NCBI RefSeq assembly: GCF_003334765.1
Contig: NZ_QOWT01000002.1
Direction: 5' to 3' (one strand)
DNA: 64,000 bases
From: Escherichia coli
GTDB lineage: Bacteria; Pseudomonadota; Gammaproteobacteria; Enterobacterales; Enterobacteriaceae
Of the stretch, positions 60,654 to 60,973 are shown one piece after another; position 1 is the first letter of the stretch; each line of letters starts with the position of its first letter. A model generated the notes under the pieces. It was not told where the DNA came from. It saw only the letters and a list, made by a program, of their open reading frames with translations, and did not search any database. Position numbers and translations under genes: made by a program.

Positions 60654-60973
60654 AACTCCCCCACTTCACCGAAAGTAGTGTCCTCATTGCTTACCTCCTG
60701 AGTTTTGCAAACAGCCTGTTGGCAGCTTGCCCTTTCAAATCAATAAGCGGTATCCACAGACAAACCTGAAGGGAAAGGCATATTTTCAGGCGTTCTGCTC
60801 GTCCTTCTCAAAGAGTTTACTTTTCTGCATTTCCAGGATACTCCCCCCCCCTGGCTATTGTGCGCTCATACACTCAAATTAAAGATAGGTTCTAAATAAA
60901 TGAGCGTTTTTTGATAGTCTATTTCATTAGGTAATATATATTTGTAACAAATCAATCAAAATGGAATAAAATC

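Follow-up and report, generated by a model that had tools for sequence, protein, structure and literature searches.

The C9 run upstream of yfdF

The window analysed here, a 64-kb (64,000-nucleotide) stretch of K-12-like Escherichia coli DNA (contig NZ_QOWT01000002.1), carries a run of nine cytosines in the region upstream of yfdF, with the genes fadL, yfdF and mlaA arranged in that order around the run. Also named icaT or gem1, yfdF is horizontally acquired and encodes a protein secreted by the type III apparatus of Shigella (PMC9769918, PMC9241512). In both E. coli and Shigella the gene is silenced by H-NS, and activation by MxiE/IpgC proceeds through a 17-bp MxiE box; the activator MxiE is absent from E. 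coli K-12, and the authors of that work deem icaT/yfdF a possible "fossil" gene (PMC9769918, PMC9241512). An earlier, sequence-only reading of the window had singled out the run as a slippage-prone tract about 120 bp upstream of yfdF, uncommon in E. coli, that might lie in the yfdF promoter or leader and there act as a phase-variation switch. The mutational half of this proposal stands, in that the run is unstable and variable in length, and the regulatory half is not supported.

The run itself is as described. Positions 60843-60851 are nine Cs (CCCCCCCCC), bordered by GATACT on the left (GGATACT in its longer form) and by TGGCTATT on the right, and the last C lies 123 nt before the A of the yfdF start codon at position 60974, in agreement with the distance first estimated. 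It is the longest homopolymer of the window and the sole C or G run of more than six nucleotides, the remaining runs of seven or more being all A/T with a maximum of eight. The number of C/G runs of nine or more expected per window is 0.45 under an independent, identically distributed model and 0.21 under a first-order Markov model, and extrapolation from the window's own decay, about 5-fold per extra base, lowers the expectation for a run this long to roughly 0.05. Runs of 8 G·C base pairs were treated as outliers in E. coli in an analysis from the Foster laboratory (PMC8510543). The claim that such tracts are uncommon thus holds within the window, where the run is unusual, yet a few per genome are still expected, and at the scale of the genome the run is explicable.

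Length polymorphism of the run

Public metagenome contigs were scanned for the pattern TTTCCAGGATACT-N(1-25)-TGGCTATTGTGCGC, and the 107 contigs obtained carry 16 different inserts. The pure alleles are C7 (1 contig), C8 (10), C9 (23) and C10 (6); those with a leading CA are CAC6 (2), CAC7 (2), CAC8 (16) and CAC9 (2); and those with a leading CAA are CAAC5 (6), CAAC6 (8), CAAC7 (1) and CAAC8 (1). Interrupted or otherwise different forms make up the remainder, namely CAAACCACCC (18), CAACCTCCC (9), CACCCACCC (1) and CCCCCCCT (1). Segment lengths of 8 to 10 are all common among the contigs. Finished genomes repeat the series, with C7 in JCC-EE 7, C8 in GSH8M-2 and C10 in J6; CAC6 in 10153, CAC7 in ST540, CAC8 in 05-3629 and CAC9 in STEC308; CAAC5 in O157:H7 and CAAC6 in M6; and the interrupted CAACCTCCC in ETEC4071, CAAACCACCC in 779 and PCN033, and CACCCACCC in TB06052. 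Comparison across genomes, which the sequence-only reading had proposed, therefore reveals a tract that is far from invariant. Among 60 evenly spaced genomes of the 4,294 complete E. coli genomes that match the region, net lengths of 128-131 were obtained for a 129-nt query, in proportions that fit the allele classes. The C9 of the window is not an artefact of its assembly, because the same 129-bp stretch is 100% identical in 12 of these 60 rows and C9 recurs in 23 of the 107 contigs.

Alleles of different length share their surroundings. On flanks identical to K-12 over ±150 bp (n=39), C7 was found once, C8 10 times, C9 19 times, C10 once and CAAC6 8 times, which bears out the assertion that the tract is prone to slippage. 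Over ±1 kb, C8 and C9 occur on haplotypes with equal numbers of differences from K-12, between 0 and 3 (locus L033 versus L020, and L028 versus L034), and CAC6, CAC8, CAC9, C9 and C10 are found on haplotypes with nearly equal difference counts. A neighbor-joining tree built from the flanks requires at least 34 changes for the 16 alleles, as compared with 15 in the absence of homoplasy; this tree is rough, being based on identity distances that contain gaps, with evident recombination, and the count shows homoplasy rather than the exact number of events. Furthermore, contigs at 40-170x coverage (values taken from contig names) carry C8, C9 and CAC8, so the variation is not merely low-coverage noise.

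Purity of the run governs how much it varies. The interrupted alleles CAAACCACCC and CAACCTCCC are constant in length across diverse flank haplotypes (18 and 9 contigs, respectively), and every allele class with at least 5 terminal Cs shows several lengths. Because E. coli indel rates climb exponentially with homopolymer length (PMC8510543), this dependence on purity and length matches the signature of run-length-dependent slipped-strand mispairing, as judged from the allele comparison. The run thus has the property of a microsatellite, with variability that increases with run length and interrupted forms that are stable. At the level of the population it also has the hypermutable repeat of a contingency locus (16 alleles; C7 to C10 on K-12 flanks). 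The maintained, uninterrupted tract of such loci was not found: CAAACCACCC, CAACCTCCC, CACCCACCC and CAAC5 together account for about one third of the contigs, and the alleles of PCN033 (phylogroup D) and O157:H7 (phylogroup E) are interrupted or have short runs, with pure runs residing on K-12-like (phylogroup A) and neighbouring haplotypes.

Two Dcm sites, found by pattern search, flank the run: CCAGG 5 bp upstream and CCTGG overlapping its last two Cs. In the rare allele CCCCCCCT (locus L092), the inner C of CCTGG, which is the methylated one, is replaced by T, plausibly through deamination. A single open reading frame (ORF) crosses the run (60727-60882; 51 aa, start codon TTG), and it was dismissed as a coding sequence: allele lengths of 7-11 break the frame, and run lengths that vary by non-multiples of 3 preclude its conservation. 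A scan of positions 58500-63500 against Rfam at a permissive E-value detected no family, its sole match being a spurious one to mir-556 on the fadL/mlaA terminator hairpin, and RNA folded around the run is less structured than shuffled sequences on both strands (z = +1.7 and +1.6).

Position of the run relative to the yfdF promoter

The yfdF MxiE box, TGAGCGTTTTTTGATAG, starts 73 nt ahead of the gene and overlaps the -35 region (Hall et al., PMC9769918, Table S2 for sequence and distance), and point mutations in the box abolish activation of yfdF/icaT (PMC9769918, PMC9241512). The published box was located in the window (Table 1) at an equal distance from the start codon (60974 - 60901 = 73). 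In canonical MxiE promoters the box is found at about -49 to -33, and fragments spanning -57 to +11 suffice for regulated activity (PMC3299695). The yfdF promoter accordingly has what defines a MxiE-box promoter, that is, a 17-bp box that overlaps the -35 region and is needed for activation, and the C-run is no part of the element. The box is unchanged in 115 of 119 sequences from other strains, and of the 118 sequences in which it was located, 117 show the box precisely 49 nt from the run's 3' end.

The start of transcription can be placed approximately. Box position and canonical geometry point to TAATAT as the likely -10 hexamer, and the primer used in a lac-promoter swap fuses lacZp to the native AACAAATCAATCAA (PMC9241512 Table S4), which begins at 60946 in the window. 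The icaT start site has been mapped in strain M90T (PMC9241512), with a coordinate that is not transferable to the window. Relative to the predicted start region the run occupies about -95 to -107. Neither the core promoter nor the 5' untranslated region (UTR) includes it, since it ends 49 bp upstream of the MxiE box, the minimal promoter extends from -57 to +11, and the 5' UTR would begin near 60946. The possibility that the run sits within the yfdF promoter or leader is thus not borne out. A consensus promoter scan of 60500-61100 detected no plus-strand promoter-like site upstream of the run, the two weak sites being at chance level, and the transcription starts listed for K-12 in the supplement of the ROSE paper do not include yfdF. 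Two published leads proved to lie elsewhere or to reflect known elements, as the yfdF/mlaA entry in a paper on "promoter islands" refers to an island at the 3' end of yfdF and the motif in an ultraviolet (UV) tiling-array paper is just the GAGCGTTTTTT of the MxiE box.

The paralogous promoter of yccE (icaR) in K-12 can be aligned with that of yfdF only over about 40 nt around the box (window 60880-60920 versus locus L133 8945-8985), and has no C-run. The MxiE boxes themselves are near-identical in yfdF (TGAGCGTTTTTTGATAG) and yccE (TGAGCGATTTTTGATAG), and the published yjgL box is also similar; these three chromosomal boxes depart alike from the plasmid consensus GTATCGTTTTTTTANAG.

Insertion sequences in the run

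In strains WCHEC025970 (L001 4288-5736) and W60 (L116), the run is split by ISEc20, a 1.45-kb IS110-like insertion sequence (IS), with the arrangement GATACT-CCCC / IS / CCCCCC-TGGC. The element has the same orientation as yfdF, which is intact downstream. The junction was counted in 85 complete genomes, which may represent a single clone. The DNA at the run can therefore be split by 1.45 kb without stopping the spread of a lineage, which is consistent, for E. coli at least, with the run having no function. A second and unrelated event is seen in NMBU-W12E19 (L117 3060-5430; window 60846 onwards), where the end of an IS421 abuts GATACT-CCC and IS421 together with IS5 has removed nearly the whole of yfdF.

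Annotation describes ISEc20 as IS110-like or as an "IS110 family RNA-guided transposase", and the element is present in 1,128 of 5,426 genomes. In all seven copies examined, each at a different locus, CCCC immediately precedes a conserved left end that begins GTTACTTTATTC... (GTTAC...), and the right end has GGGGC(A/C) followed by 4-8 Cs. Besides the yfdF run, these loci are a phylogroup B2 island (L126/L128/L130/L131), rtcB (L127), a mini-element in a P2-like prophage (L132), a site next to a zinc-ribbon protein gene and an autotransporter gene (L134, L135), and the plasmid pAST20_1 (L136). One empty site could be read, in rtcB (L129), where the sequence is CTG-CCCCGCCC-TCGAG, and the flanks beyond the Cs have no obvious common motif. 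These junctions suggest that ISEc20 may target C-runs with a CCCC core. C5 and G6-9 runs occur in the left end of ISEc20 and are compatible with guide segments of an IS110 bridge RNA; an Rfam scan of ISEc20 yielded no match, and a literature search on its target choice found no paper. The P2-like prophage region of strain ECL27977 (L132 1700-1810) holds a miniature derivative of about 105 bp, in which the left end is joined to a right-end-like CACCCCCCCC and no transposase gene is present, again with C-run flanks.

Interpretation of the C9 run

In our assessment the C9 run is most probably a neutral, slippage-prone mononucleotide microsatellite in an unconstrained spacer of a horizontally acquired islet, upstream of the promoter. 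The polymorphism, its dependence on the purity of the run and the position of the run relative to the validated MxiE box are matters of observation. Neutrality we infer from signs that the repeat may be free of constraint, among them the absence of a conserved ORF, of an Rfam match and of RNA structure, and the tolerance of IS insertions. On the simplest reading, an older interrupted sequence, either CAAACCACCC or CAAC(n), which persist in strains of phylogroups D and E, would have lost its A interruptions by A-to-C changes, passing stepwise from CAAACCACCC to CAAC(n), CAC(n) and C(n) before slippage set in. CAAC6 and C9 have equal total length and both occur on identical ±150-bp flanks. This direction, from interrupted to pure, would make the run a recent creation; two scans of species-representative genomes, one by peptide patterns of YfdF and one by the MxiE box with its flank, detected no relative, and hence provided no outgroup or Shigella allele. 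From a length of about 6 uninterrupted Cs onwards, slippage during replication would repeatedly add and remove Cs and yield C7-C10, CAC6-9 and CAAC5-8 on otherwise identical haplotypes, the C9 of K-12 being one transient state. A change in length would shift DNA about 100 bp upstream of the start by one bp and leave the MxiE box, the -35/-10 spacing and the mRNA unaltered, so that no on/off switch in expression is expected from it.

Several points weigh against this interpretation. Within the intergenic region, diversity is among the lowest in the approximately 90 bp that border the run to left and right (nucleotide diversity, pi, about 0.01-0.02). This estimate is qualitative: the requirement for exact matches in the search pattern biases the closest 13-14 nt in either direction, and a few rearranged contigs, together with a mosaic and highly divergent allele of fadL, inflate the scan. 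Such conserved flanks run counter to the signs of relaxed constraint and could reflect an unrecognised upstream element. The run stands exactly at the GC-to-AT step in base composition, where it may influence where H-NS binding begins, and its length may have a weak quantitative effect on yfdF expression. Both published yfdF reporter constructs start at 60609 and so always carry the run, in the form present in a single strain. The position of the yfdF start in K-12 is itself predicted from work in Shigella and from the geometry of other MxiE promoters, and miscounted homopolymers in low-coverage contigs or long-read-only assemblies could account for some of the length calls.

A first alternative is the one that the sequence-only reading had raised, a phase-variation (contingency) switch in which slippage alters promoter geometry and so turns yfdF/icaT expression up or down. 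Length polymorphism on identical haplotypes, a location upstream of a gene for a secreted protein, which is a typical phase-variable class, and flanks that are fairly conserved are all in keeping with such a switch. Its position is not, as a run 49 bp upstream of the MxiE box lies outside the minimal promoter and the 5' UTR, and no known activator site is found upstream of the run whose phasing could matter. Nor is a switch easily reconciled with the stable interrupted alleles of strains of phylogroups D and E and of many other lineages, with a paralogous yccE promoter that lacks the C-run, with an IS within the run in 85 genomes, or with a gene that is H-NS-silenced in an E. coli background from which its activator is absent. 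A C9 tract in mismatch-repair-proficient E. coli should, in addition, mutate far less readily than the classic contingency tracts do, which argues in the same direction. Taken together, these considerations make a switch very unlikely. An architectural role is equally improbable in our estimation. In this scenario, a rigid G/C run at the GC-to-AT border would set the edge or nucleation point of an H-NS filament, and its length or purity would tune silencing quantitatively. The drop in G+C content from about 47% to about 30% falls exactly at the run, yfdF is H-NS-silenced in E. coli and Shigella, and the adjacent DNA is low in diversity. However, the 16 alleles include A-rich interrupted ones, yet icaT/yfdF is H-NS/MxiE-regulated in K-12, O157 and Shigella (PMC9241512), and a 1.45-kb IS in the run is tolerated.

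Least probable of all is that the length variation is a sequencing or assembly artefact, with homopolymer miscalling around a true run that is invariant. Long-read-only assemblies and low-coverage contigs often misstate homopolymer length, and several C8 contigs have only about 3x coverage. Against this, one series of alleles recurs in two independent types of data (metagenome contigs and finished genomes), alleles differ by substitutions as well (the CA, CAA and interrupted forms), the variation has lineage structure, in that CAC8 dominates one flank haplotype and CAAC6 another, and C8, CAC8 and C9 occur on the contigs of 40-170x coverage. A further proposal, compatible with a neutral microsatellite, is that the run matters mainly as an insertion target of ISEc20, which would select C-runs with a CCCC core; this would be a consequence of the run and not a cellular function, and we regard the proposal as possible, if a little short of an even prospect. 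It draws on the ISEc20 insertions inside the run, on the CCCC flanks of all seven copies examined and the empty rtcB site CCCCGCCC, and on non-C flanks without an obvious consensus. On the other hand, the flanking Cs may partly belong to the ends of the IS or to a duplicated core, so that the minimal target may be CCCC alone, and one site (L134) has just CCCC on the right. Furthermore, the 85 genomes may stem from one insertion, the two copies read being identical, the Rfam scan matched nothing in the element, and no literature was found on ISEc20 target choice. More tentative still is the suggestion that the run is a newly created ISEc20 landing pad, in which mutational purification made a target where 85 of about 4,300 genomes with the islet now carry the element.

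The yfdF islet and neighbouring genes

The islet that contains the C-run and yfdF (Table 1) stands in place of about 8 bp (TTAATAAG) of a 61-bp spacer between fadL and mlaA. The tract region is matched in 4,294 of 5,426 complete E. coli genomes (approximately 79%). In the other genomes, about 21%, the site is empty, and fadL and mlaA are convergent and 61 bp apart (E166 and EcPF40; L002/L003 at about 3050-3110), with one bidirectional terminator hairpin serving both genes. Within the islet, G+C is about 47% from 60621 to the run and 25-35% from there through yfdF. These observations are consistent with published accounts of a chromosomal insertion near fadL that is absent or largely absent from phylogroup B2, and of a yfdF (icaT) gene common in phylogroups A, B1, D and E (PMC9241512). 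A search of the plasmid collection PLSDB for the islet found no genuine plasmid. Its 5 matches (H121-H125) are E. coli records of 0.37-4.9 Mb, four of them larger than 1.4 Mb and evidently chromosomes, and the records look like chromosomal DNA that was misfiled under plasmids.

At the left edge of the islet, the region 60609-60740 folds with -40.1 kcal/mol (z = -4.2), and the hairpin that it contains probably serves, as judged from the predicted fold, as the fadL terminator in islet-bearing strains.

Table 1. Features of the yfdF locus, with positions in the 64-kb window
Feature	Position	Strand	Remarks
fadL	59262-60608	+	gene 5' of the islet
yfdF/icaT islet	60621-62172	+	about 1.55 kb, AT-rich, sharp borders; comparison with empty-site strains E166 and EcPF40
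Strong hairpin, AAAGTCACCTGC-ATA-GCAGGTGACTTT	60627-60653	+	left islet edge, directly after the fadL stop codon
CCAGG (Dcm site)	60833-60837	.	pattern search
C9 homopolymer (G9 on the minus strand)	60843-60851	.	hypervariable mononucleotide microsatellite
CCTGG (Dcm site)	60850-60854	.	pattern search
MxiE box, TGAGCGTTTTTTGATAG	60901-60917	+	identical to the published box; 73 nt before ATG, 49 nt after the run
TAATAT, likely -10 hexamer of the MxiE-dependent promoter	60932-60937	+	predicted from box position and canonical MxiE geometry (PMC3299695)
Predicted transcription start region	60946-60950	+	lac-promoter swap junction; box end + 33 = 60950
yfdF (icaT, gem1)	60974-62032	+	352 aa, AT-rich; ORF list and RefSeq annotation
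mlaA	62214-62969	-	gene 3' of the islet, convergent with fadL

The yfdF product itself is variable. It is 352 aa in K-12 (as in the window), 343 aa in O157:H7 (L004 2914-3945) and about 410-415 aa in ETEC4071 (L008 2912-4159), 779 and PCN033, and the gene is a frameshifted pseudogene in TB06052, J6 and GSH8M-2. These length variants are consistent with the phylogroup-specific indels reported previously (PMC9241512), and forms other than that of K-12 are named "hypothetical protein" in RefSeq. A Pfam search of YfdF detected no domain. In J6 and GSH8M-2 (L118/L119), the 3' two-thirds of fadL (window about 59780-60551) is highly divergent, with many substitutions and in-frame indels, and returns to near-identity with K-12 at about 60552, a pattern that resembles a breakpoint of recombination shortly before fadL ends.

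Relation to known repeats and implications

Polymorphic mononucleotide repeats in the non-coding DNA of E. coli were reportedly described by Gur-Arie et al. in 2000 (Genome Res 10:62), and again, it is said, by Metzgar et al. in 2001 (Mol Microbiol 39:183). The run upstream of yfdF is a further example of this known kind of sequence, with which it shares an uninterrupted intergenic homopolymer, a length that varies among isolates, variability that increases with length, and no attached phenotype. It differs in base composition, as the run is G/C and 9 bp is at the extreme of the length range of G/C repeats, whereas A/T repeats make up 93% of the mononucleotide repeats of E. coli (PMC7015867).

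The homopolymeric phase-variation tracts of other bacteria are organised differently. In Bordetella pertussis, a stretch of Cs separates the BvgA site of fim2 and fim3 from the -10 element, and the poly-G tract of porA and the poly-C tract of opc in Neisseria meningitidis lie in or next to the -35/-10 spacer. All are poly-C/G tracts upstream of genes for surface or secreted, virulence-type proteins, and change length by slipped-strand mispairing, as the yfdF run does. Unlike the run, however, which is 49 bp upstream of the MxiE box and interrupted in many lineages, the Bordetella and Neisseria tracts are located inside the core promoter or in the gap between activator and -10 element, where a single base pair alters promoter geometry, are longer (typically 10-15 or more), and are kept across strains. 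The homopolymeric tracts of B. pertussis are the topic of PMC1891110. Compared to the MxiE/IpgC-regulated, H-NS-silenced promoters of Shigella type III effector genes (ipaH, ospC1, virA, icaR/yccE and others), yfdF is alike in being a validated member of the regulon, and the C-run is the odd component, falling outside the defined architecture of -57 to +11 and being absent from the yccE promoter. With the target sites of IS110-family, bridge-RNA-guided elements the run has in common that ISEc20 is found within it and at six other sites with CCCC-flanked junctions; it differs in that the run is a target of ISEc20 and not a component of the element.

For the regulation of yfdF the run has little consequence, and a tempting but unsupported phase-variation hypothesis is removed; the run is also placed relative to a published promoter under MxiE/H-NS control. 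What the locus does offer is a natural example of microsatellite birth, with stable interrupted and unstable pure alleles on the same haplotypes. As a fast-evolving marker, the run could tell apart close relatives among the E. coli of phylogroups A and B1, and it is also a position where homopolymer miscalls are to be expected in assemblies. The item most worth following up is the possible preference of ISEc20 for C-runs, IS110 elements being of interest as programmable recombinases. If this preference is real, a programmable recombinase would be able to target G/C homopolymers in E. coli, which could add to selection against long G/C runs.

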